Source of the DNA: a virus | Lineage: Duplodnaviria > Caudoviricetes | Reading direction: 5' to 3' (one strand) | IMG/VR virus record: IMGVR_UViG_3300027777_000045 | Span: 1-56,201 of that record | DNA: 56,201 nucleotides | Shown here: positions 40,258-55,639 of the stretch, one piece after another | Position numbering within the stretch: position 1 is the stretch's first letter | How the letters are laid out: each line of letters opens with the position of its first letter | Notes under the pieces: model-generated | Seen by the model: the letters and a program-made list of their open reading frames with translations, nothing else | Told to the model about the DNA's origin: nothing | The model's database searches: none | Program-made: the position numbers and the translations under genes

Positions 40258-42426
40258 ATGGCAAAGAAACCAACAACTACAACTCTAGCTGATTTAGTTA
40301 ACAGTCCCGAGTATAAAGGAATGAGTGATATAGTAAAAGCTCAGATTGAATCAGCTTTGGCGGAAAGTAAAGGAAAGCCAGCGCCATTACCAAAAAAAAG
40401 TAAAACTGCTATTTCTACAGATGAAGTTCTTGCAAATCCCGCAATGGTTAAAGCAATTAAAGAAAAAATTGGTGAGAAAGCCACAGAAGAATTTTTAAAA
40501 AAAGCAGATGAAAAATCTGCTATCGATGACACGGATAAACCGATCGTTATAGATAAACAAAATAAAGTCAAAAAAACAAAACAGAAAACTAAAAAACAAC
40601 GAGACCTTGAACAACAAGAAAATACACAAAAATCTTTTAAGGATTTTATTTTAGGTAAAGGCAGTAAAGCATTTAATAAAATGTTTCCATTATTGGGAGC
40701 ATTATTAGGTGGTGTGTATCGTGGTGGTGATAAAAATAAAAGTAATGATACATCACAATCAAATACACGTTCATCGGATAGCGGTGTAACTGCAATTTTA
40801 TCCAGTATTGTTAGTAGTCAAAGAACTACCAATTCTATTTTAACAGAAATACTTAATGGTATAATAGGTAATCGAAATAATAATCCATTAGCACCGGGTA
40901 ATAATAATCCAAATACAAACATCGGTGGCGGTGGTGGACTTTTTGATGGTTTAAAAAGTTTATTAAGACTGGTGGGTTTTGCGATAGGTGGAGTTGGTTT
41001 AGGAATAGCCGGAGCGGCAGGTGTTTCAGCTTTACGAAATTCTGGGAATGATCAACAGCAAAGTTCCGACCAAAATACACCACCAAAAACTGTGACAACA
41101 CCAGCAAATACAAGTACTGCTCCTAGATTAATAAGTCCGAATGTTAATAATTATAGCCCTGAACCAACCCCTATGTCAGTTGATGCATCAAGGGCAAATG
41201 CATCACGTGTAAGACTTGCAGGCACAACCGCGGCTCAATTGATGGGTAGAGGTGCACCACCGGCAGGAAGAATTAATAGTGATACCGAAAGGGCTTTTAA
41301 TAGTTTACCACCGGCTCAACGAGGACTTATTAGTCCAAATGTTAATAATTATAATCCCGAACCAGAGCCTATGCGTTTAGGTGCTGCTGGACGAACATTT
41401 GCTGGTGAAGAAAATCCATTAAATCAACAGAAACTAAGTGAAGCAGCACAACTCACAAGACCTATTGAAAATTATATACGATCACTTAATGAATTGGATG
41501 CATCAGAGAACGCTAGTAATAATGTAGAAGGAATTTCCATTCCGCATGATTTGACACAAAGAAATGCATTAGAAAACGGTTTTATACAAAGTTTATCAAC
41601 ATTAAATAATGTTCCTATTTCCGAGCGCCCATCACCCCCAGAAGGTACTTTTGAACGTCTACGTTTAATTAGACAAAGAAGAGGTGAATCAGAACTACCG
41701 CCGATTCCAGGACCACAAGGAGGTGTATTTGCCGGAGAGCAAGATAATAGAAGTCCATCATTAATATCAGTAAATTCTGTCGGTAATTATAATCCCGAAC
41801 CAGCACCATCTGAAACAACCATACCTGGTATACAACAAGCTCAAAGAGCACGTATTGAATTGGCTGGTACCACAGCGGCTCAATTGATGGGTAGAGGTGC
41901 ACCGCCAGCCGGGAGAATTAATAGTGATACCGAAAGGGCTTTTAATAGTATAACACCGGCAACAATTCGTCGCCCAAGGAGTTCAGATCCACTTAATTGG
42001 CAAGGTGGGGGATCAACGCGTTCAAGGGTAAATCAGGGAAATACGTCAAACCCACAATCATCTCAAACTGCAAGACCTATACCATCATCTTCATCATCAA
42101 GCCCACAATCATCTCAAACTGCAAGACCTGTACCATCATCTTCATCATCAAGCCCACAATCATCTCAAACTGCAGGACCTGTACCACAAGCACCATCTGT
42201 AAGTGTAGGGAGAACATTATCCGATGTTTCCACACAAAATGCCATTGCTGAAAGAGCAGTACCTGCAGCACCAACAGCACCGCCAGCGACAGCTGTAGAC
42301 ACACCTGCAACGCCGGCACCAAGAACTGAGCGTTCTGCAAACCCTATTGATCCTGATAACCCAGGGCCATTAGAACCATCTGATGCTAGTATTAGATATA
42401 ATAGATTATTTAGTATGGTTGCATAA
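40258..42426 (+). CDS. Second low-complexity tape-measure/ejection-like protein, a partial paralogue of the upstream gene
   Basis: Shares GSKAFNKMFPxLGxLLGGVYRGG with the upstream gene; one hydrophobic segment LVGFAIGGVGLGIAGAAGV; internal repeats. Confidence 0.6.
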   Translation: MAKKPTTTTLADLVNSPEYKGMSDIVKAQIESALAESKGKPAPLPKKSKTAISTDEVLANPAMVKAIKEKIGEKATEEFLKKADEKSAIDDTDKPIVIDKQNKVKKTKQKTKKQRDLEQQENTQKSFKDFILGKGSKAFNKMFPLLGALLGGVYRGGDKNKSNDTSQSNTRSSDSGVTAILSSIVSSQRTTNSILTEILNGIIGNRNNNPLAPGNNNPNTNIGGGGGLFDGLKSLLRLVGFAIGGVGLGIAGAAGVSALRNSGNDQQQSSDQNTPPKTVTTPANTSTAPRLISPNVNNYSPEPTPMSVDASRANASRVRLAGTTAAQLMGRGAPPAGRINSDTERAFNSLPPAQRGLISPNVNNYNPEPEPMRLGAAGRTFAGEENPLNQQKLSEAAQLTRPIENYIRSLNELDASENASNNVEGISIPHDLTQRNALENGFIQSLSTLNNVPISERPSPPEGTFERLRLIRQRRGESELPPIPGPQGGVFAGEQDNRSPSLISVNSVGNYNPEPAPSETTIPGIQQAQRARIELAGTTAAQLMGRGAPPAGRINSDTERAFNSITPATIRRPRSSDPLNWQGGGSTRSRVNQGNTSNPQSSQTARPIPSSSSSSPQSSQTARPVPSSSSSSPQSSQTAGPVPQAPSVSVGRTLSDVSTQNAIAERAVPAAPTAPPATAVDTPATPAPRTERSANPIDPDNPGPLEPSDASIRYNRLFSMVA
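41215..41949 (+). repeat. 90-bp dispersed direct repeat (41215-41304 and 41860-41949)
   Basis: Both copies encode LAGTTAAQLMGRGAPPAGRINSDTERAFNS with only synonymous differences. Confidence 0.9.
42051..42180 (+). repeat. 51-bp tandem repeat, about 2.5 copies
   Basis: cccacaatcatctcaaactgca(a/g)gacct occurs three times, encoding PQSSQTARP.PSSSSSS. Confidence 0.9.
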
Positions 42427-42458: not shown

Positions 42459-43394
42459 TTAACTTGCAAGTCGCTTAAAGAATTCTAAATCTTCACCATC
42501 GTCATCATCATCTGTATTAGTGGATGGTGCAGAGCGCGCAGGCGCCTCACGTTGAGGCGCCGATTCCTTCCAAGGAAGTTCATCCTCATCATTCTGCTTC
42601 CGATTGGCTGCAGCCTGGCGAGAACCAGCAGGGGTACTTTCATCAAGATTAAGAACCTTGTTCAACTTAGCCTTAAGTTCATCATAGGTCTTAAAGTTAG
42701 ATGGAGAAAGGAATGCCTGTAGTGAATGTTCCTGCTTCCAAATAGCCTCAATTTGATTGTCATTTTCAAAAAGAGGAGCAGCAGAGGCAAATTCAGACTT
42801 ATCGTAGTTGCGGTAACCCTCAACATTACGAATCTTAAGCTTGAAATTAGCACCAGACCATGGATCAAAAGGATTCATAGGCTCTTCATCCGCAAACTGA
42901 GGATTCATAGCTTCGTTGAGCTTATCATAAATCTTCTTGCCAAACTTGAACAGCTTAACCTTACCGTTATTTTCAGGATTGGCCTGGTCTTGAATGATAT
43001 AGATATTGCTGATAAAAGTCAACTTACGCTTTTGAGCGCGTGCCTGTTTACGAGTAGGTGAATTATCATCCTCGGAAATATTCCAAAGCTTGGAATTCAA
43101 TTCACCAACTGGGTCGGTCTTACCAATAGTTGTAAGAGAGTTTTCGATATACCAAAGACCGGTAGGGCCCTTGAAACCATGCTCGAACATGCGAATGAAA
43201 GGAACATCTTCATCACTGGGAGCTGGGAGGAATCGAATGACTGCAAAGCCATTACCGGCCTTGTCTACATTAGGATACCAGAAGCGGTCATCGCCCTTGC
43301 TGGATTCACCTTGTGTATTGAGTTTGGCAAGTTCTGCGGTAAGCTTTTCAAGTGAGTTCTTACCAGAATTGCGCTTAAGTTGTGAAAAGTCCAT
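42459..43394 (-). CDS. gp32: Single-stranded DNA-binding protein gp32
   Basis: DDRFWYP..DKAGNGFAVIRFLP; WYIENSLTT; FKFGKKIYDK; GANFKLKIR.VEGYRNYDKSEF; acidic tail. Start is ATG 43394 after GGAG. Confidence 0.96.
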   Translation of the reverse strand: MDFSQLKRNSGKNSLEKLTAELAKLNTQGESSKGDDRFWYPNVDKAGNGFAVIRFLPAPSDEDVPFIRMFEHGFKGPTGLWYIENSLTTIGKTDPVGELNSKLWNISEDDNSPTRKQARAQKRKLTFISNIYIIQDQANPENNGKVKLFKFGKKIYDKLNEAMNPQFADEEPMNPFDPWSGANFKLKIRNVEGYRNYDKSEFASAAPLFENDNQIEAIWKQEHSLQAFLSPSNFKTYDELKAKLNKVLNLDESTPAGSRQAAANRKQNDEDELPWKESAPQREAPARSAPSTNTDDDDDGEDLEFFKRLAS

Positions 43395-43471
43395 GTATAG
43401 TCTCCGTATGTTTTGTATATTTGTATGATCGTATATTTGTATATGAGAGTAAACCCTCATAACTATTTATA
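43395..43471 (-). promoter_or_regulatory. gp32 leader: late promoter, hairpin and repetitive unstructured A/C-rich tract
   Basis: TATAAATA at 43464-43471, then ATGAGGG-TTTA-CTCTCAT, then ATACAAATATAC twice and further ATAC units up to the RBS. Confidence 0.65.
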
Positions 43472-43477
43472 ATATCA

Positions 43478-44056
43478 CTAGACAGAGAAAAAGTCAACCA
43501 ATAGTTTTTTGATTTTCTCTCTATCATACTTAATGAATGGTATATATTTCTTGATAAGAAGTTTAATCTCATTCCATACAACATCATCATTAAGTTCTTT
43601 ATCCCAGTGCTTTAAACATCTGGAAATATCCACCAATACACATAAAGTTTCTGGTGATATGGAATCACTACAGAAAAGCTTAATTAGTATTGGGTGTTGG
43701 TTATCTCTTACTATAAAATTTTCATTGAATGTTTTATTTAGTTTCTTAAGGTCACCAGCAATCATATAAGTCAATGATTGACTTCGTTTCAACCAGTCAA
43801 GATATATTTGTTCAGCTGATTCATCATAAGCTATTTCACGGATAAAACATTTAGGATTTTGTATAAAATTAGCAAGCATAAGATTATGTGCGTCTCTATG
43901 CTTTGCAACTTTTTCAAAAAGAAATTTATCTTTACGCTTATTAAAAGATTCTAAATTTGCAGTTATTTTGCTGTTATATCTAAAGTAGTTATACCCAAGT
44001 AAATTAAAATGATTTTTTAAAGCAAGATAATCTTTATACACCTCAAATGATGTCAT
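43478..44056 (-). CDS. gp59: Helicase loader gp59
   Basis: FEVYKDYLALKNHF...YNYFRYN..SFNKRKDKFLFEK; HPILIK; ISPETL; adjacent to gp32 and gp33. Confidence 0.9.
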   Translation of the reverse strand: MTSFEVYKDYLALKNHFNLLGYNYFRYNSKITANLESFNKRKDKFLFEKVAKHRDAHNLMLANFIQNPKCFIREIAYDESAEQIYLDWLKRSQSLTYMIAGDLKKLNKTFNENFIVRDNQHPILIKLFCSDSISPETLCVLVDISRCLKHWDKELNDDVVWNEIKLLIKKYIPFIKYDREKIKKLLVDFFSV

Positions 44057-48034: not shown

Positions 48035-48988
48035 TTAGGCCGCTTCCGCCATTTCGATAGCGGTCTCAAGAGCACGAACCTTGAGGTTCTTGTTTGAACC
48101 ATACCAGGCTGAAGTCATCCGGGTATCGGTAGAGCGACCGATGAGGTGATCGGTCATATAGGTAGTGGCATTAAACGCCTGCCACCAGGATCCAGCAGCA
48201 TATTCGGCACCAGGCTGAGTCTCAAGAATACCAAGAGCGGTCCGAGCATTCTTGGTGATTTCAGAGCGCTTGGCATTTTCCGAGGCAGGAAACACACGCT
48301 TGAAGTACTCAACCACGTTTTCATCACTGTAGCGCTTAGAACCGAGGAACTGAGCCATTTCCTTGTACTGGGCAAGCTTTTCGGCTGCAACACCGAGCAT
48401 CAACTTAGTCTGGTCACCGTTAAACTCACGACGGTGGCTGATCTTGACCATACGCTCGACCTTGGTATTGAGCGACAAAGTCAAAGTGTTGTTACACACC
48501 ACACGGATCGGAGTGAACCGAACATCGGTGCTGCAGCCATACTTATGGAAGTTGGTGAAGTGCAGGTAAGAGTCAACCTTATCACCACCAAATAACTCGA
48601 ATGAATCCTTCACCTTAGCCAGAGCCCAGACAATCTTGCCGTCACAGAGACTACCAGCGGTGTGCATTTCCATGTCACCCTCAGCAATGAAGTCGTTAAA
48701 GAACTCGAAAGCCTCAGAGTTCTGCACCGGATTCCAGTCATCCGAAACCACATCAACGATCTTGCTATCGCTAGAGCGAACCAGAGCAGACCAACCGACA
48801 TTAACATTCTTGCCGGCAACCTTAGCAAAGGCAGGGACCTTATTGACCTCCCAATTCAGACCAGCTGCATCGAGCATCTGTTCGGGGGTAAGATCGCCGG
48901 GTACCCGAGTACCCAGACCGTGCCAAGGCACATCACCGGCATATGCCATCTGAGCCTTACCGTCAACCATTTCGATATTATGAGCCAT
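48035..48988 (-). CDS. DUF932 (phage/plasmid-like TIGR03299) family protein
   Basis: MAH.IE...MAY.G.VPWHGLG; AGLNWEV; PVQNSEAFEFF; HTAGSL.DGK.VW.LA; FTPIRVVCNNTL. Confidence 0.9.
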   Translation of the reverse strand: MAHNIEMVDGKAQMAYAGDVPWHGLGTRVPGDLTPEQMLDAAGLNWEVNKVPAFAKVAGKNVNVGWSALVRSSDSKIVDVVSDDWNPVQNSEAFEFFNDFIAEGDMEMHTAGSLCDGKIVWALAKVKDSFELFGGDKVDSYLHFTNFHKYGCSTDVRFTPIRVVCNNTLTLSLNTKVERMVKISHRREFNGDQTKLMLGVAAEKLAQYKEMAQFLGSKRYSDENVVEYFKRVFPASENAKRSEITKNARTALGILETQPGAEYAAGSWWQAFNATTYMTDHLIGRSTDTRMTSAWYGSNKNLKVRALETAIEMAEAA

Positions 48989-49035
48989 TATATAAACCTT
49001 TCATATGATGGGCGATATGCCCTGTTAATAAAGTT

Positions 49036-49064
49036 ATTATAACAAACTTTGGGGGTAATGTCAA
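49036..49064 (-). promoter_or_regulatory. Sigma70 early promoter
   Basis: TTGACA-17-TATAAT; near-duplicate of the 52212 promoter. Confidence 0.85.
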
Positions 49065-49105
49065 CCAAAATTTTGCGGTTTTCAAAACTTTTTTGTTAAC
49101 ATTTT

Positions 49106-49294
49106 TTAATCTTCAAGATCGTCTCTGAGTTGATGAGTAACTTCCACCCATGCCGCAACTCTCACTTTTGAAAATACTTCTACATCGAGTAGTCCATTTC
49201 TTACTTTTTCTGAAATAAGATATTTTACTTCTTTATTGGTTTTAAATTCACATTCTTTTCTCGAATAAACACGGTAAGCGCATAAACTAATCAT
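49106..49294 (-). CDS. Small QxxEDL-family ORF
   Basis: Ends HQLRDDLED. Confidence 0.6.
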   Translation of the reverse strand: MISLCAYRVYSRKECEFKTNKEVKYLISEKVRNGLLDVEVFSKVRVAAWVEVTHQLRDDLED

Positions 49295-49451
49295 CTAAAT
49301 CGTCTCTAAGTTGTTCATGAATATGTGGAACATACAACATAATATCATATAATACTTGGTTATGATCATAGACATCGCATTTAATTAGATTATGAGCAGG
49401 AATTCCAATATTCCATATCGATGGTGGAAAGATAATATCTTTAACTTTCAT
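49287..49451 (-). CDS. Small QxxEDL-family ORF
   Basis: Likely start MKVKDII overlapping the upstream stop; ends EQLRDDLDD. Confidence 0.6.
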   Translation of the reverse strand: MKVKDIIFPPSIWNIGIPAHNLIKCDVYDHNQVLYDIMLYVPHIHEQLRDDLDD

Positions 49452-49632
49452 TTTCTGCATCTTCCACAAATTGTTCTCTAATATGAAATTCACAATCAAG
49501 TATCTGACCAATATGTTTAAGTTCAAAAACTTCCATAAAGTTATGATATACTACATATTTCCTAACCTTTATCCTAATAGTATCCTCAACATCATCCATT
49601 ATTTGAGTTATGGTTTGACTATACATTTTCAT
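49441..49632 (-). CDS. Small QxxEDL-family ORF
   Basis: AAAGGA RBS; ends EQFVEDAENES. Confidence 0.65.
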   Translation of the reverse strand: MKMYSQTITQIMDDVEDTIRIKVRKYVVYHNFMEVFELKHIGQILDCEFHIREQFVEDAENES

Positions 49633-49667: not shown

Positions 49668-49696
49668 ATTATAACACAATCATATATCACTGTCAA
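49668..49696 (-). promoter_or_regulatory. Sigma70 early promoter
   Basis: TTGACA-17-TATAAT. Confidence 0.85.
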
Positions 49697-49709
49697 CAAA
49701 AAAATGCAC

Positions 49710-49742
49710 AAAAAAAGAGGGTGATAACTTAATACCACCCTC
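49710..49742 (-). terminator. Intrinsic terminator
   Basis: GAGGGTGGTA-TTAAGT-TATCACCCTC-TTTTTTT. Confidence 0.85.
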
Positions 49743-49769
49743 CGAGTTAAACCAAATATGTTTTAAAAA

Positions 49770-50636
49770 TTAAGTACGGAATTCCAAGTCTCGAAGCACC
49801 TCGGGGTCAACACCATAAGTCCAGGCATTTGCTTCCAACGCGGTCTTGACAGTAGGCGGCACAGGAATAGCAAACTCACGACCAGTACCACAAACAACAC
49901 GCAGGAACTGTTCTTTACCAATATCAGGAATATTCACCTGCAGAAGAGTACCAATCTGCGGATCCTCATCCTGGTCAATAACCTTGGACTTCAATTCCTT
50001 TAGAATATGAACCCAACCAAGGATTTCACAAGCAACTCGACGGAGTTCCAGGTTGTCTTCCTTGAGAGCGGCCTTAGCGGTCAACTCTTGCTTATTGGTG
50101 ATCCAGAACCACTTATCACGGCTCAGACGAACACCGTGCCAGGCAAACACCATGGTACCGTCCTGATATTCAATGGCGGGACCATCCTCACAATGCAGAC
50201 GGTTCTGGTCATCGAATCGGATATACATCGGGAACTCTTGAATAATAGCAAAGTCCTTGTCGACATAAGTCCAGCAAGCAACTTGCGCATATTCAATCAG
50301 CGGTTGGACAATCTCCAGATCCAGACCGCAGACTTCCTTGAAGTAAGCATAGAAACTCAACCAAGAACTATCATGAGCACCATAGATCATAGAGTTCATG
50401 AATTCAGTAGAAGTACCGTTAGGCTTTACAGACTTATAGATCTTATAGGCATCCATAGGTCCAGTAGCATAATAAACACTAGAAGGTGCTTCAAGATCAC
50501 GAGACGTGTAGCACTTTGCAAGAGCAGTCTTAGCTGCAGCAAAGTCAAGAACTTCAGTACGAAGACCGATTTCCAACCAGCGGTCCCGATAGACGGGAAT
50601 TTGCGCCAGTTGGTCTTCATTCAAACTAGTAATCAC
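49770..50636 (-). CDS. DUF6745-like protein
   Basis: RLHCEDGPAIEYQDG..VFAWHGV; EDNLELRRVACEILGW; VVCGTGREFAIPVPP..KTALEA.AWTYG. Confidence 0.75.
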   Translation of the reverse strand: MITSLNEDQLAQIPVYRDRWLEIGLRTEVLDFAAAKTALAKCYTSRDLEAPSSVYYATGPMDAYKIYKSVKPNGTSTEFMNSMIYGAHDSSWLSFYAYFKEVCGLDLEIVQPLIEYAQVACWTYVDKDFAIIQEFPMYIRFDDQNRLHCEDGPAIEYQDGTMVFAWHGVRLSRDKWFWITNKQELTAKAALKEDNLELRRVACEILGWVHILKELKSKVIDQDEDPQIGTLLQVNIPDIGKEQFLRVVCGTGREFAIPVPPTVKTALEANAWTYGVDPEVLRDLEFRT

Positions 50637-50696: not shown

Positions 50697-51059
50697 TCAG
50701 TCGGCAGCCTTACGGAAACCTTCGGCAGTATATTCACGTTGACGGCGAATCTCGTAGGTACCGGGTGGGACCATAATAGCCTCGTGAGTATCGAAAGATC
50801 GAAGATGGTCAATCCGAGTGTCTTCCTTGACAAGAAGGAACATCTTGTACAAGTCAACATTCTGAGAGTTAGACTTATCGGCAGGAATTTCGAATGCCTC
50901 GACTCGAGTTGCTTCCATCACGTGATTGTGCCCAGTTTCACTGTGAGCAACAATTACCTTGCCATTCTCAGGAGCAACGGGAACAACACCCTCGGGGATA
51001 TTCTGAATACGCAGGATAATGAAGTCACCCTGAGCAGCCATGTTACGCATAATCTTCAT
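50697..51059 (-). CDS. Conserved partner of DUF6745-like proteins
   Basis: AQGD.I; AHSETGHNH; HEAIMVPPGTYEIRRQREY. Confidence 0.7.
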   Translation of the reverse strand: MKIMRNMAAQGDFIILRIQNIPEGVVPVAPENGKVIVAHSETGHNHVMEATRVEAFEIPADKSNSQNVDLYKMFLLVKEDTRIDHLRSFDTHEAIMVPPGTYEIRRQREYTAEGFRKAAD

Positions 51060-51116: not shown

Positions 51117-51361
51117 GGGTTATTTTTGAACAAAATGTTTTTGGCTCTAGTGAGAGCATTACCTGTGTCTGTAATATGGCCTTTTGAAACAAAATGGCCA
51201 ACTTGATGTGCACAGTCTGTTACAGTGAATAGTGCTGTAAGAGCCTCACGTAGTTCATCTCGTTCGTCTAACAAGGCCAACATATGTGTCTTTTCGACCA
51301 TAATAACAGTTGGACCTTGAGAGACGAGGGCACGAAATGTTTCGGTATCTGTAATAGCCAT
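51113..51361 (-). CDS. Hypothetical protein
   Basis: Likely start MAITDTE (ATG 51361) after GGAGG, overlapping the upstream stop (TAATG). Confidence 0.6.
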   Translation of the reverse strand: MAITDTETFRALVSQGPTVIMVEKTHMLALLDERDELREALTALFTVTDCAHQVGHFVSKGHITDTGNALTRAKNILFKNNP

Positions 51362-51777
51362 TATTGATCCTCCATCGCTTTTGTTACATGTCGGCACTTC
51401 TTATGGAATTGAAATCCAATACAAGTACACGACCAACGTTTAGTGCGGCCATCCTGTCGCACGGTATAGACTTCACCGGTTTTAGATGAAGTCACATTTA
51501 AGACCTTGTCGACAGTGACCTTCGGTTGTTTTACCGTAACACCACCAATCGACAAGACTTTATGCATAGGGATATAATTGAAGCCCTTGGTCTCACTATT
51601 TAGAATAGTAAGATCTGCAATAGAAGTCATCCACTTAGGAGTAGGTACAACAACCCCACGAAGAGTCAATGTAGGCTGTACCCTATGTACTGAACATGGA
51701 GCCATAGCATAACGTGCTGCAGCATTGTCCAATACGACCTCTACGACTGAACCTTCGGTGGGGAGTTGCATTTTCAT
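51361..51777 (-). CDS. SWIM-type zinc-finger protein
   Basis: YTVRQ...WSCTCIGFQFHKKCRHV. Confidence 0.75.
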   Translation of the reverse strand: MKMQLPTEGSVVEVVLDNAAARYAMAPCSVHRVQPTLTLRGVVVPTPKWMTSIADLTILNSETKGFNYIPMHKVLSIGGVTVKQPKVTVDKVLNVTSSKTGEVYTVRQDGRTKRWSCTCIGFQFHKKCRHVTKAMEDQ

Positions 51778-52160: not shown

Positions 52161-52211
52161 AATATAATGTCCTTTTCAATTTTGACCATCATTGGTCTGG
52201 CTAACATAGTT

Positions 52212-52240
52212 ATTATAACAAACTTTTGGGGTCGTGTCAA
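52212..52240 (-). promoter_or_regulatory. Sigma70 early promoter
   Basis: TTGACA-17-TATAAT. Confidence 0.85.
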
Positions 52241-52261
52241 CAAAAGATTTGTTAACTTTTG

Positions 52262-52597
52262 TTAATCTTCTAGCTGAGCACAACCACCATGCTTTTCAAC
52301 TGTTTCCAATATCTTAGCGACTGGAACCCAGCCAAAAACACAGTCCTCATCTGAGGGGTCATCACCCATGTCCTCGCGCCATTGACGAAGTTCTGGCACT
52401 GGCTTGGTAGGAAAACCTACCTCCATGGAAGACCACGGGCCGACATGAGACCTCGGTGAAGAATAATGATAGGAACTGGCCTGGACGGACATCTTGAATC
52501 CATCACGACATATCAGAGGCGGCATCACCTCGTGACTCAGATTACCGAGCACGGCTTTGTCTCGCATACGGGTTATGTAGGCTGATAGAACATCCAT
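52262..52597 (-). CDS. Conserved phage hypothetical protein
   Basis: CRDGFKMSVQASSYHYSSPR...EVGFP...VFGWVP....KHGG. Confidence 0.75.
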   Translation of the reverse strand: MDVLSAYITRMRDKAVLGNLSHEVMPPLICRDGFKMSVQASSYHYSSPRSHVGPWSSMEVGFPTKPVPELRQWREDMGDDPSDEDCVFGWVPVAKILETVEKHGGCAQLED

Positions 52598-52621
52598 AGT
52601 AAATCTCCTGTTTATAAAAAG

Positions 52622-52650
52622 ATTATATCAAACACCGATGGTCATGTCAA
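52622..52650 (-). promoter_or_regulatory. Sigma70 early promoter
   Basis: TTGACA-17-TATAAT with TG extension. Confidence 0.85.
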
Positions 52651-52661
52651 CAACAGTTTTG

Positions 52662-52841
52662 TTAACTTTCGTTAATATCCTCAGCGACTTGGTTCTCTAG
52701 ACTTATATTGAACGATCTATCATAAATTGGCATTTGTAGCCCAGCATATGTCTTAAACCGAACGTTTTTTCGAACAGATTTATGCAATTCGCGCATAGAA
52801 TCATCCAATACATGACTCAAAAGCACATCAATAGTCTTCAT
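52662..52841 (-). CDS. Small QxxEDL-family ORF (59 aa); absent from the track
   Basis: MKTIDVLLSHVLDDSMRELHKSVRKNVRFKTYAGLQMPIYDRSFNISLENQVAEDINES. Confidence 0.65.
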   Translation of the reverse strand: MKTIDVLLSHVLDDSMRELHKSVRKNVRFKTYAGLQMPIYDRSFNISLENQVAEDINES

Positions 52842-53025
52842 AGTTTAGATTTTCCTTGATTTGTTCATCGAGTAACGTATAAATGTCATCTATAAATGCT
52901 GGTTCAACCCATCGAATCACATAACTACGAATACCATCAGCAAATACACCCTGAGATTTGTGCCAAATAGCATCTGATACATCATCCGCCATGATATTAC
53001 GTGCTGTTTCATTCATTCTAAGCAT
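52828..53025 (-). CDS. Small QxxEDL-family ORF
   Basis: Ends EQIKENLNYEDY. Confidence 0.65.
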   Translation of the reverse strand: MLRMNETARNIMADDVSDAIWHKSQGVFADGIRSYVIRWVEPAFIDDIYTLLDEQIKENLNYEDY

Positions 53026-53176
53026 TATCTAGATCTTCTTTTATTTGTACTTTTAATGGGACCAAAACAAGCATAATTTCATGCAATAATTTATCACCGA
53101 CAGCAAATTGTAAACGAGGACAAATTTCAGATGTATCAATATGTCGCATGGTTTGGATTTTATTGACTATATTCAT
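53018..53176 (-). CDS. Small QxxEDL-family ORF (52 aa); absent from the track
   Basis: MNIVNKIQTMRHIDTSEICPRLQFAVGDKLLHEIMLVLVPLKVQIKEDLDNA. Confidence 0.65.
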   Translation of the reverse strand: MNIVNKIQTMRHIDTSEICPRLQFAVGDKLLHEIMLVLVPLKVQIKEDLDNA

Positions 53177-53319
53177 TGATATAACAATCTCATTATTGTA
53201 ATAAATTCGTGTACTCCAAAAATACCTACAGCAATCAATGCAAAGCCTGTTATAGTCATAGCAATTGCTACAATTGTAAGAGTAACAACGTCAATATAAG
53301 CATTTAACTTTTCAAGCAT
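53173..53319 (-). CDS. 48-aa single-TM protein inside the array; absent from the track
   Basis: MLEKLNAYIDVVTLTIVAIAMTITGFALIAVGIFGVHEFITIMRLLYQ; overlaps both neighbours. Confidence 0.6.
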   Translation of the reverse strand: MLEKLNAYIDVVTLTIVAIAMTITGFALIAVGIFGVHEFITIMRLLYQ

Positions 53320-53491
53320 CGTCTAAATCCTCCCAAACTTGACTGATCATATAATCTTCAATTATAGCTTCAATTACAACAAAATGATTAAGCCAAATTT
53401 TATTACGAACCTCCAATCCACTCGACATTGCCGTTTGTTTCCAGGCAGTATCCGATGTATCAGTATGTATCCGTTCAACAATTCTAGACAT
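53312..53491 (-). CDS. Small QxxEDL-family ORF
   Basis: Likely start MSRIVER; ends SQVWEDLDDA. Confidence 0.65.
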   Translation of the reverse strand: MSRIVERIHTDTSDTAWKQTAMSSGLEVRNKIWLNHFVVIEAIIEDYMISQVWEDLDDA

Positions 53492-53678
53492 CACGTAAAT
53501 CCTCATCCACTTGTATAAACACATTATCCAATATCGGTCTATGAATACGACCATTCAAATCCATACGTATATTCAATGCTATATGGCGCATGGTACCATC
53601 ATCTGTAGTATCCCATGTTCTACCCGAGGCTTCTTCTGCACACTGGCTTTTTATTATATATCGTATATTCTTAGACAA
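53484..53678 (-). CDS. Small QxxEDL-family ORF
   Basis: TTG start; ends IQVDEDLRDV. Confidence 0.65.
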   Translation of the reverse strand: MSKNIRYIIKSQCAEEASGRTWDTTDDGTMRHIALNIRMDLNGRIHRPILDNVFIQVDEDLRDV

Positions 53679-53856
53679 GATCTAGATCCTCTTCCATTTG
53701 ATCTTGAATTATACCGCGCATAATAAGTAAGGGCTCAGCATAATCTTGAATAATACGTGCATCACACCAAACCTCCAAGGAAACACTTTCGTGTTCATGG
53801 AGCTTATGACCGGCTTGAATTCTAACCTGATATTTGATTTCATTTATAATTGACAT
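53671..53856 (-). CDS. Small QxxEDL-family ORF
   Basis: Ends DQMEEDLDLV. Confidence 0.65.
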   Translation of the reverse strand: MSIINEIKYQVRIQAGHKLHEHESVSLEVWCDARIIQDYAEPLLIMRGIIQDQMEEDLDLV

Positions 53857-54025
53857 CTAGATCCTCATCTATCTGATCTTGAAGGTTATATCGTAATTCA
53901 AGTCCAATTTTAGCACTAACATCACCTAGAGTCACACCTACAAGTACTTCCTCGGATAATGCATCAAGATACAAATCGAGTGAATCTTGAATTGATCCTT
54001 TAATACATCCAGTAATTTCAGACAT
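53840..54025 (-). CDS. Small QxxEDL-family ORF
   Basis: Ends DQIDEDLDVNYK. Confidence 0.65.
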   Translation of the reverse strand: MSEITGCIKGSIQDSLDLYLDALSEEVLVGVTLGDVSAKIGLELRYNLQDQIDEDLDVNYK

Positions 54026-54182
54026 TTTCTAGATCTTCTTCAATTTGGGAATAAATCGATTTCGAATAATCATCATGCCAAAGTTCGTCTTCAATCTCAC
54101 ATACCATATCAAATCCGACATTCTCATATACAATATGAAAAAGATTACCTTCACCCATGATTTTACTCTCTGTATCAGACAT
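54018..54182 (-). CDS. Small QxxEDL-family ORF (54 aa); absent from the track
   Basis: MSDTESKIMGEGNLFHIVYENVGFDMVCEIEDELWHDDYSKSIYSQIEEDLENV. Confidence 0.65.
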   Translation of the reverse strand: MSDTESKIMGEGNLFHIVYENVGFDMVCEIEDELWHDDYSKSIYSQIEEDLENV

Positions 54183-54363
54183 CATCTAGATCTTCGGCAA
54201 ATTGATCCAATAGAGGTTCGCGAACTTGATCTAATACTTGATATCCTGTTTCATTATTGACGTAAAATCCTATATGATAATCAGCATTTTTGACACGTAC
54301 TGCTTTCCATATTATATCGCCGGCCATGTCTGATGCAGAACTGATTTTTTCACCAATTGTCAT
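54175..54363 (-). CDS. Small QxxEDL-family ORF, first of the main array
   Basis: Ends DQFAEDLDDV. Confidence 0.65.
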   Translation of the reverse strand: MTIGEKISSASDMAGDIIWKAVRVKNADYHIGFYVNNETGYQVLDQVREPLLDQFAEDLDDV

Positions 54364-54397: not shown

Positions 54398-54426
54398 ATT
54401 ATAACAAAAAACCCGGTACTTGTCAA
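54398..54426 (-). promoter_or_regulatory. Sigma70 early promoter driving the small-ORF array
   Basis: TTGACA-17-TATAAT, overlapped by the inverted repeat AAACCCGGTA...TACCGGGTTT. Confidence 0.8.
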
Positions 54427-54474
54427 CGATTAAGTCAACAATACCGGGTTTCTTTAACATATCATAAATTTATG

Positions 54475-55151: not shown

Positions 55152-55198
55152 AATAATGTCTCCTGAAAGGCCCTATGCCTTTCCTTCCTTATATGGCT

Positions 55199-55227
55199 AT
55201 TATACCAAAAGAATACGTCAATGTCAA
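55199..55227 (-). promoter_or_regulatory. Sigma70 early promoter
   Basis: TTGACA-17-TATAAT with TG extension. Confidence 0.85.
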
Positions 55228-55254
55228 CAATTATTTTATTACAAAATGTTAATA

Positions 55255-55467
55255 CTAAGGATTCTGCCAAGGCGGCGGTCGATCAGGACCACGTGCCTGA
55301 TTGCCAATAGCCTCAATCCTCTTCATGACATCTTCATATGCACTCAGATAACCTTCTCCCCACATCAGATGCAGACTCAAGTCAGTGTCATGGTTATAAG
55401 GATTATCTGCAAAATGCCGACCACGCTTATAGTCATCATAACCAGACCAATAAGGATCAGCTGACAT
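55255..55467 (-). CDS. Rmf-like small protein
   Basis: YWSGYDDYKRG....NPY.......LMWGEGY resembles the ribosome modulation factor pattern. Confidence 0.5.
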   Translation of the reverse strand: MSADPYWSGYDDYKRGRHFADNPYNHDTDLSLHLMWGEGYLSAYEDVMKRIEAIGNQARGPDRPPPWQNP

Positions 55468-55639
55468 TACACAAATCCTCCATCAATTGAAGTTTAGTCA
55501 TAGGCCCAATAGATAGAGGCGCAAGCTGATTCATATATCCAAGTGCTTGGATGGCGCCATACTGATACATAAGTTTAACTACAATGGAAGTACGCATATG
55601 ATATACAACATCTGGAATGTTAGTCATATCTAACATCAT
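55457..55639 (-). CDS. Small QxxEDL-family ORF, outlying copy
   Basis: Ends LQLMEDLCNVS, overlapping the next ATG. Confidence 0.55.
   Translation of the reverse strand: MMLDMTNIPDVVYHMRTSIVVKLMYQYGAIQALGYMNQLAPLSIGPMTKLQLMEDLCNVS

Follow-up and report, generated by a model that had tools for sequence, protein, structure and literature searches.

Overlapping micro-genes in a T4-like phage genome fragment are probably diverged, free-standing copies of a DUF6745 tetrapeptide repeat module

The stretch of DNA analysed here (the window, 56,201 nucleotides, IMG/VR record IMGVR_UViG_3300027777_000045) is a 56.2-kb fragment of an uncultured virus record that is ~35% complete by CheckV and encodes T4-type baseplate wedge and hub proteins and a T4-type tail fibre. 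From ~44 kb to the window's end, the minus strand holds a series of small genes with six perfect TTGACA-17-TATAAT promoters that have an extended -10. Within this series lies our subject, an array of nine overlapping open reading frames (ORFs) of 52-65 aa, cassettes A to I, together with one transmembrane (TM)-like peptide (Table 1). An initial annotation, made from the letters alone, had described these ORFs, their tails and a single strong promoter at 54398-54426; we read the ORFs and tails as it gave them, between two perfect sigma-70 promoters, and the upstream promoter, as predicted from sequence, matches the consensus at 12/12 positions and has the extended -10 TG. All nine ORFs terminate in Q-h-x-E-[DN]-[LI], where h is a hydrophobic residue. 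Successive members of the chain overlap by 11, 8, 17, 8, 8, 8, 4, 8 and 14 nt, so that the described overlap of each end with the next start holds over a range of 4-17 nt, with the qualifications that cassette I is terminal and that the TM peptide and G meet at a simple ATGA that lacks the motif. The junction DNA forms the block CAR-nTn-nnn-GAR-GAT-YTA-GAn-nAT-GYY-TRA, which codes both for '..Q-h-x-E-D-L-D-x-V*' and for the following 'M-S..', and the sequence GATCTAGA, said to occur often at these junctions, is present in 5/9 tails (A, B, C, D and G).

Table 1. Positions in the window of the cassettes and of the genes and signals around them (length in amino acids; empty cells, nothing recorded)
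Feature	Position	Strand	Length	C-terminal tail	Remarks
gp32-type single-stranded DNA-binding protein (SSB)	42459-43460				nearest GenBank match ~53% identical
gp59-type helicase loader	43478-44056
Satellite cassette M	49106..49294	-	62	QLRDDLED	terminal
Satellite cassette K	49287..49451	-	54, from ATG at 49451	QLRDDLDD
Satellite cassette J	49441..49632	-	63	QFVEDAENES	overlaps start of K
Terminator hairpin (49743-49716) and perfect promoter (49696-49668)	49668..49743	-			between DUF6745 gene and satellite array; z -3.66
Repeat-less DUF6745 protein (N-domain and DUF6745)	49770..50636	-	288		PF20530, E 9.7e-29
Second perfect sigma-70 promoter, closing border of the unit	52622..52650	-			hairpin not significant (z -1.34)
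Cassette I	52662..52841	-	59	QVAEDINES	terminal; no overlapping downstream gene
Cassette H	52828..53025	-	65	QIKENLNYEDY	best-conserved cassette, dN/dS 0.28
Cassette G	53018..53176	-	52	QIKEDLDNA	lost in L003-L005; junction relic in L005
Hydrophobic TM-like peptide (tm)	53173..53319	-	48		without the motif
Cassette F	53312..53491	-	59	QVWEDLDDA	missing in L005 and in one contig of run X7
Cassette E	53484..53678	-	64	QVDEDLRDV	TTG start
Cassette D	53671..53856	-	61	QMEEDLDLV	tail DNA is that of cassette X in L002
Cassette C	53840..54025	-	61	QIDEDLDVNYK	dN/dS 0.93
Cassette B	54018..54185	-	55	QIEEDLENV	window only among the six arrays compared
Cassette A	54175..54363	-	62	QFAEDLDDV	family profile E 5.9e-15; orthologs in 6/6 array-bearing phages (window and five relatives)
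Composite of the promoter-early stem-loop (PeSL) type	54398..54454	-			hairpin 3' arm and U-tract between -35 (54426-54421) and -10 (54403-54398)
Solitary cassette U1	55457..55639	-	60	QLMEDLCNVS	overlaps 70-aa non-member gene

The family extends beyond this array. A family profile hidden Markov model (HMM) matches 13 of the window's 1121 stop-to-stop frames at E <= 1.5e-8, the next frame standing at E 0.43, which agrees with the 13 members announced in the initial annotation. A regular expression for the C-terminal motif picked 12 of 438 ORFs of at least 30 aa, all on the minus strand, and also matched two internal sites in long proteins. Besides A to I, the members comprise the solitary cassette U1 and a satellite array, J-K-M, which begins 138 nt downstream of the gene for a 288-aa DUF6745 protein; the main array lies upstream of that gene. 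Among relatives the satellite chain varies between J-K-M, J-K and J alone. The best non-member match, the frame at E 0.43, is a His-rich tandem-repeat frame (KLQDLYHHLHHQAHNHL x3) at 42032-42202 on the plus strand, in the region of a 722-aa ORF (40258-42426).

The shared tail could be selected as peptide, as DNA or as both, and the initial annotation had argued from the constant Gln and the varied hydrophobic codon that selection acts on the protein. In 57 members curated from the window and five related phages (48 internal; 9 terminal, of the I and M types), Gln is invariant in 57/57, written as CAA in 45 and CAG in 12 with both codons found within subfamilies I and D, and the hydrophobic position draws on 14 different codons, so that this argument stands. 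The Leu codon CTA is used by 27/48 internal and 0/9 terminal cassettes (10.9% of 790 Leu codons in long genes), and GAG fills the Glu position in 24/57 members versus 19.7% in long genes. Such codon preferences are what one would expect if the tail were a mere by-product of gene overlap, a Shine-Dalgarno (SD) sequence (GAGGA) and a start codon forcing E-D-L-D-x-V on a peptide without function, and two further cases point the same way: a junction relic, AAAGATCTAAAAAATG, which in the relative L005 is kept at the site of a lost cassette G as the sole sequence before H, and an unrelated phage, L015, in which a 398-aa head protein ends in an identical 21-nt junction. But the motif, which the initial annotation had wanted compared with other overlapping junctions, occurs at 0/27 overlapping or abutting non-family junctions of the window, although SD-like sequence is present at 13 of these; the Gln stands ~20 nt upstream of the next start; the nine terminal cassettes, which have no overlapping downstream gene, retain Q-h-x-[ED]-D-[LI]; and the TM/G junction couples without any motif. 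We find a functionless by-product hardly credible. Given the invariant Gln, the retention in terminal cassettes and the split in CTA usage, the peptide cap is under protein-level selection and internal junctions alone add sequence of the GATCTAGA type, which bears out the earlier idea that one stretch serves two uses. Searched exactly in IMG/VR, the junction pattern matched only the window's clade and L015, where it (L015:2001-2021, ..GEDLDNV* overlapping MSN..) leads from a head-maturation or scaffold-like protein to the next gene, without the Gln and without micro-ORFs; we take this junction as chance or convergent.

The same junctions are where arrays differ between phages. We compared the window with five relatives that share its flanking genes (L002-L006); two more, L007 and L011, also share the flanks and have a single 72-aa ORF between them, with no cassettes. 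The window's order A B C D E F tm G H I becomes A C D X E F [other ORF] G H I in L002, A C E F [other ORF] H I in L003 and L004, A C E tm H I in L005, and N1 A N2 C E(truncated) G H I in L006. Relatives thus carry 5-9 motif cassettes; in pairwise DNA alignments all mapped indel boundaries fall at cassette junctions, and four of the five gains or losses fall within the junction motif, in keeping with the expandable cassette array, broken at its junctions, that the initial annotation had foreseen. For the indels of B, X, D and F, adjacent high-scoring segment pairs overlap by 18-38 nt on the shorter genome. The A/C junction of L002 consists of the left half of the window's A/B and the right half of its B/C, cassette D of the window has the tail of X of L002 from the Gln codon onward, and the crossovers at L003 C/E and L005 E/tm lie within GAGGAT..ATG. 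Exact identity from junction to junction spans only 4-13 nt, so exchange would rely on short homology. Lake metagenome runs contain joints as well, each in single contigs at a 90% likeness threshold: one in the independent run X7 removes 53301-53485, which is cassette F, and others in two runs put another cassette's tail directly before the start of A. The 48-aa hydrophobic peptide is itself swapped for an unrelated ORF of 75-96 aa in three relatives (L002:6763-7053, L003:7539-7781, L004:2105-2332).

Upstream of the tail, the bodies had been called hypervariable and barely alignable. The first description is apt for paralogs, whose bodies are 18% identical versus 60% for the motif, but it fails for orthologs, whose bodies are 63-86% identical, as in neighbouring small genes; at least 13 distinct subfamilies with stable orthologs are found in the window and 17 across the clade. 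Behind the second, the initial annotation missed a relation, and with it the repeat-less DUF6745 gene of the same region: the period-4 signal and the profile matches described below mark the bodies as probable degenerate tetrapeptide repeats related to an internal tract of DUF6745 proteins. The family HMM consensus, 'lddV sddI wkeV rikV rknI ryqV sarI rqpI .. kdQI kEDL', reads as such a repeat. In bodies stripped of the motif, hydrophobic autocorrelation at lag 4 is 0.078 versus -0.019 +/- 0.033 after shuffling (2/2000 shuffles reach 0.078) and is negative at lags 3 and 7; spectral power at period 4.0 is 0.57, versus 0.25 in 36 control pieces from neighbouring genes; and this periodicity runs in phase with the motif (0.56 vs 0.33-0.44, chi2 p 4e-6). 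With the motif removed, 11/136 subfamily pairs beat the best reversed-profile control in hhalign, linking E-I-N2-X-A-M and F-H-J.

The tract in question was found by searching the family profile against 1.84 billion representative proteins. The initial annotation had suggested a profile search of phage genomes, and at E <= 0.001 ours retrieved 70 matches, 13 short relatives and 57 proteins of at least 250 aa. Two of the short relatives, P0056 and P0039, consist of QVW repeats ending HQVKEDLGHG and KVEDQLNEDV, and the 57 long proteins contain up to seven matched stretches in (x-Q-V-[W/R/G])n tracts. Pfam DUF6745 lies behind the tract in 8 of 12 long proteins scanned, and the C-terminal domain of the long proteins matches phrog_31813, as does the window's 288-aa protein. 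Residues 2-74 and 78-279 of that protein align with the long proteins on either side of the tract, with the tract itself skipped (hhalign probability 100, E 3.7e-44). Repeat-less forms of ~288 aa are abundant in metagenomes (819 matches, on contigs of up to ~160 kb). Proteins with the tract are spread over at least 78 loci from a very wide range of bacterial phyla; the two such loci inspected are prophage-like, one with a RecE-like exonuclease, an SSB and an excisionase, the other with a DNA methyltransferase. A spring-water siphovirus (L135:3347-4624, GenBank MW202476) encodes a 425-aa DUF6745 protein whose tract is (S-S-L-[W/R/E/G])n instead of QV, from which it appears that the conserved feature of the tract is its period and its pair of a hydrophobic followed by a variable residue, not Gln-Val. 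We also tried a relaxed cap pattern at the ends of fused tracts, where it matches the repeat itself.

Free-standing repeats also keep company with DUF6745 genes in more distant phages. Of 31 IMG/VR loci that carry a DUF6745 homolog and do not belong to the window's clade, 11 have QV-type micro-ORFs (70 ORFs over 302 kb), and there are none in 111 kb of control DNA (seven other phage loci and window 1-47000). Nearer to the window, in L104, the DUF6745 protein is 77% identical to the window's and pure QV ORFs ending DQVFEDLTT and NQVFEDLMT flank its gene on both sides. In L123, 17-18 overlapping ORFs of the form 'MKQV..(QVxx)n..RQVKENLK', whose tail QVKENL resembles the QIKENL of cassette H, are built from a 12-nt DNA repeat in 236 copies with a 182-nt higher-order period. 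There (L123:9300-9960) the 12-nt unit consists of CAAGTC and two codons that vary; T-N-T (Ser, Phe, Tyr, Cys) or CGT/TGG predominates at the first of these, which concentrates variation on a few bases of each unit. One relative within the window's own clade, L006, has at L006:976-1279 a 68-aa ORF made almost purely of N-Q-V-Y repeats, with the tail QLKEDLLYHD, and after it a 34-aa QV ORF; a single genome can thus hold both pure repeats and degenerate cassettes. In a DUF6745 tree of 24 rows, with partial-match loci left out and with a midpoint root only, the seven phages with degenerate cassettes form one group, with L104 as sister (100/100) and L105/L106 next (91/82). The most economical reading is that the window's cassettes would descend from pure QV micro-genes and would have diverged into stable subfamilies in which cap and junction are kept and the period survives as a trace.

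Descent from such an array raises the question of whether the cassettes still do anything. They could be decaying relics that drift and are kept open only by coupling to useful genes downstream, and the loss of the DNA repeat, the divergence of paralog bodies, the dN/dS (ratio of nonsynonymous to synonymous substitution rates) of cassette C and the dispensability of whole cassettes in relatives, down to none between the same flanks in L007 and L011, would all fit decay. Against decay, 10/11 subfamilies have dN/dS <=0.71, the ORFs are intact in the window and all five relatives save for the truncated E in L006, the bodies retain the period-4 register, and the Gln does not vary; we consider mere relics very unlikely. 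Because orthologous bodies have dN/dS of 0.28-0.93 (0.05-0.30 in flanking genes), the ORFs appear to be genuinely coding, with selection that is relaxed or partly diversifying.

We think it likely, then, that the 13 micro-ORFs represent the DUF6745 tetrapeptide module in diverged, free-standing form, chained by a junction that is cap, start and recombination site in one, and that their products are probable partners of the repeat-less core. Most phage and prophage proteins of the DUF6745 family carry the (x-Q-V-[W/R/..])n module between an N-terminal domain and the DUF6745 domain; in this T4-like lineage the DUF6745 protein has no tract, and the module would be present instead as chains of ~60-residue genes in an early, promoter-bracketed hyperplastic region. 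Q-h-x-E-[DN]-[LI] would be the two terminal repeats, which share the body's period-4 register and have been fixed as a cap. The DNA of the cap then has three roles: it encodes the cap under protein-level constraint; its purine-rich, SD-like GA(R)GA and the overlapping next start codon would provide for translational coupling; and it offers short homology, 8-13 nt exact and ~20-30 nt imperfect, at which, by comparison of relatives, cassettes have been deleted, inserted and swapped, presumably through recombination.

Several observations weigh against this account. Since the match is between low-complexity repeats, homology and convergence with QV tracts cannot be fully separated. Homology is favoured by a comparison with a reversed profile of the same composition and period and the opposite residue order: the forward profile scored higher in 57/57 long proteins (42.8 vs 2.2 bits), a set that was itself picked by the forward profile, and in 69 of 70 pure-QV micro-ORFs (25.4 vs 4.0 bits), which were picked by regular expression independently of the profile; with the motif cut off the scores were 19.3 vs 1.6 bits. 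The bodies of B, C, D, G and K have no detectable similarity to others in hhalign once the motif is removed, lag-4 autocorrelation is <=0.03 in 7 of 17 subfamily representatives (A, X, K, M, N1, N2 and U1), the window array retains no 12-nt or other DNA tandem repeat, and its bodies are not pure x-Q-V-x repeats. Co-occurrence, too, amounts to only ~7 independent lineages because several positive loci are near-identical contigs, and 20 of the 31 distant DUF6745 loci have no micro-ORFs, although their flanks of at most 6 kb make this absence weak evidence. Selection alone could enrich breakpoints at junctions, as indels elsewhere would destroy ORFs and coupling. An AlphaFold2 model of cassette A, built with 57 relatives, consists of two helices at low confidence (predicted local distance difference test, pLDDT, 55.6), which makes it unfit for a fold search. 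The only trace of expression is three short, 100%-identical contigs from two lake metatranscriptome libraries, covering parts of the array and possibly DNA carry-over, and is at most a weak hint that the array is transcribed. Finally, a distance of 2 kb and five other genes separate the main array from the DUF6745 gene.

That distance would fit a rival account in which the cassettes are ordinary expanded small early effectors, for host takeover or anti-defence, that act alone on the host through a tail serving as docking helix for a host protein, their likeness to DUF6745 being old ancestry or convergence. Effectors of this kind would also suit the early-type promoters and hyperplastic-region context, selection that is relaxed or partly diversifying with dN/dS up to 0.93, variable presence among close relatives, and products that are mostly acidic, with net charge as low as -13. 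Yet the satellite array lies directly 3' of the DUF6745 gene in the window and in all six clade relatives, and synteny of QV micro-ORFs with DUF6745 recurs across distant lineages with none in the controls. Nor did scans of the ten products with Pfam-A and PHROG give a significant family match (best E 0.0028, all below curated cut-offs), and the anti-defence and host-takeover roles proposed in the initial annotation are unsupported by these two collections (PADLOC was not searched). Independent effectors thus seem to us unlikely. If the cassettes are instead copies of the DUF6745 module, their products would most likely act with the repeat-less core as exchangeable variable inserts. We tentatively go one step further, to a reading that we hold to be possible but doubtful: the arrays might be a shuffled library of putative trans-acting inserts that dock via the Q-h-x-E-D-L cap onto the DUF6745 core, at the site where relatives have their tract, with recombination at junctions gaining, losing and re-tailing cassettes. 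One core would then obtain many alternative surfaces, diversified by gene content rather than by point mutation.

The hairpin at the main array's upstream promoter has a stability of -27.6 kcal/mol (z -5.46), equalled by 0/200 shuffles. Four of the six early promoters (minus strand; 52198-52303, 49022-49127, 52608-52713, 55185-55290) have a common block 5' of the -35, '..GAAGATTAACAAAAGTTAAC..TTGTTGACA', which at no fewer than three of them takes in the E-D-stop of the preceding gene, so junction-like sequence is also present at promoter-linked gene ends; a non-member 111-aa gene likewise terminates in ..AQLED*. Conserved neighbours of the DUF6745 gene are a 138-aa SWIM zinc-finger protein (51361-51777), a 317-aa DUF932 protein (48035-48988) and a 120-aa protein (50697-51059) that is 97% identical across the clade and adjoins DUF6745 in L104 as well.

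The DUF6745 core is modelled with high confidence (pLDDT 94.5, predicted template modelling score 0.83); this model has no Foldseek match in the PDB at E <= 0.001 (best hit of the VIA wide search, Z 4.4 over 54 residues) and matches DUF6745 proteins only in BFVD. By sequence, the PDB gave 0 matches to the family profile and three low-complexity matches to the long-protein profile. Neither the array DNA searched against GenBank phages nor tblastn with cassette H found a match, and ESM Atlas placed H with unnamed viral clusters at 0.86, which is chance level. Readings as RegB-type GGAG cleavage, gp21-type L-x-E cleavage, a clamp-binding QL-type motif or a precursor of ribosomally synthesized and post-translationally modified peptides were considered and dropped for lack of testable support. 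In the literature searched, we found no paper on this arrangement and none that mentions DUF6745; among the matches listed for tetrapeptide repeats and small ORFs in bacteriophage, nothing was relevant by title and abstract opening.

If copies of the DUF6745 module are indeed what these genes are, an internal protein repeat has been released as a chain of separately translated mini-genes, each with one short stretch that is peptide cap, translation start region and recombination site at once. By swapping genes, a large phage would thereby have a compact means of altering the surface of a protein, and an initial foothold would be gained in DUF6745, hundreds of relatives of which were retrieved from public phage, prophage and metagenome data. 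Such arrays would escape repeat finders because their cassettes can diverge until only the statistical period-4 trace and the cap remain, and close relatives reveal cassette gains and losses at base resolution.

Known systems resemble parts of this arrangement. Pentapeptide-repeat and other short-period repeat proteins also repeat at a short, constant interval and have one hydrophobic position in each unit; the period here is 4 rather than 5, the helices predicted for cassette A, at low confidence, are a further difference, and none of these proteins matched in sequence or fold. The DUF6745 tract proteins (PF20530, phrog_31813) appear to have the same repeat unit, order and register, x-Q-V-[W/R/G..], have the N-domain and DUF6745 domain in common with the window's protein, and occur in phage or prophage early-region contexts; in the window, by contrast, the protein has no tract, and 13 individual and highly diverged genes, each closed by a fixed acidic cap, would encode it instead. 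Pure QV micro-ORF arrays beside repeat-less DUF6745 genes (L104, L108, L120, L123) are likewise tandem ORFs, of 50-80 aa, with stop/start overlaps, DUF6745 synteny and a clade-specific fixed tail (QVKENLK, QVFEDLTT), but they are still 12-nt DNA repeats, whereas the window's cassettes have lost the DNA repeat as they diverged. For the exchange of cassettes, the nearest parallel is the PeSL of T4-type phages, a repeated short regulatory motif of the hyperplastic region that is described as an exchange point for small ORFs (Arbiol et al. 2010, PMC2839356; Comeau et al. 2014, PMC4122927). The array's junctions likewise repeat a short conserved motif at which small ORFs are exchanged, and the array's upstream border, though not its closing one, combines a sigma-70 promoter with a stable stem-loop; the window's breakpoints lie instead in coding junctions with neither promoter nor stem-loop, where a peptide cap meets a translation-initiation region, and its exchange, unlike that at PeSLs, falls within one transcription unit.

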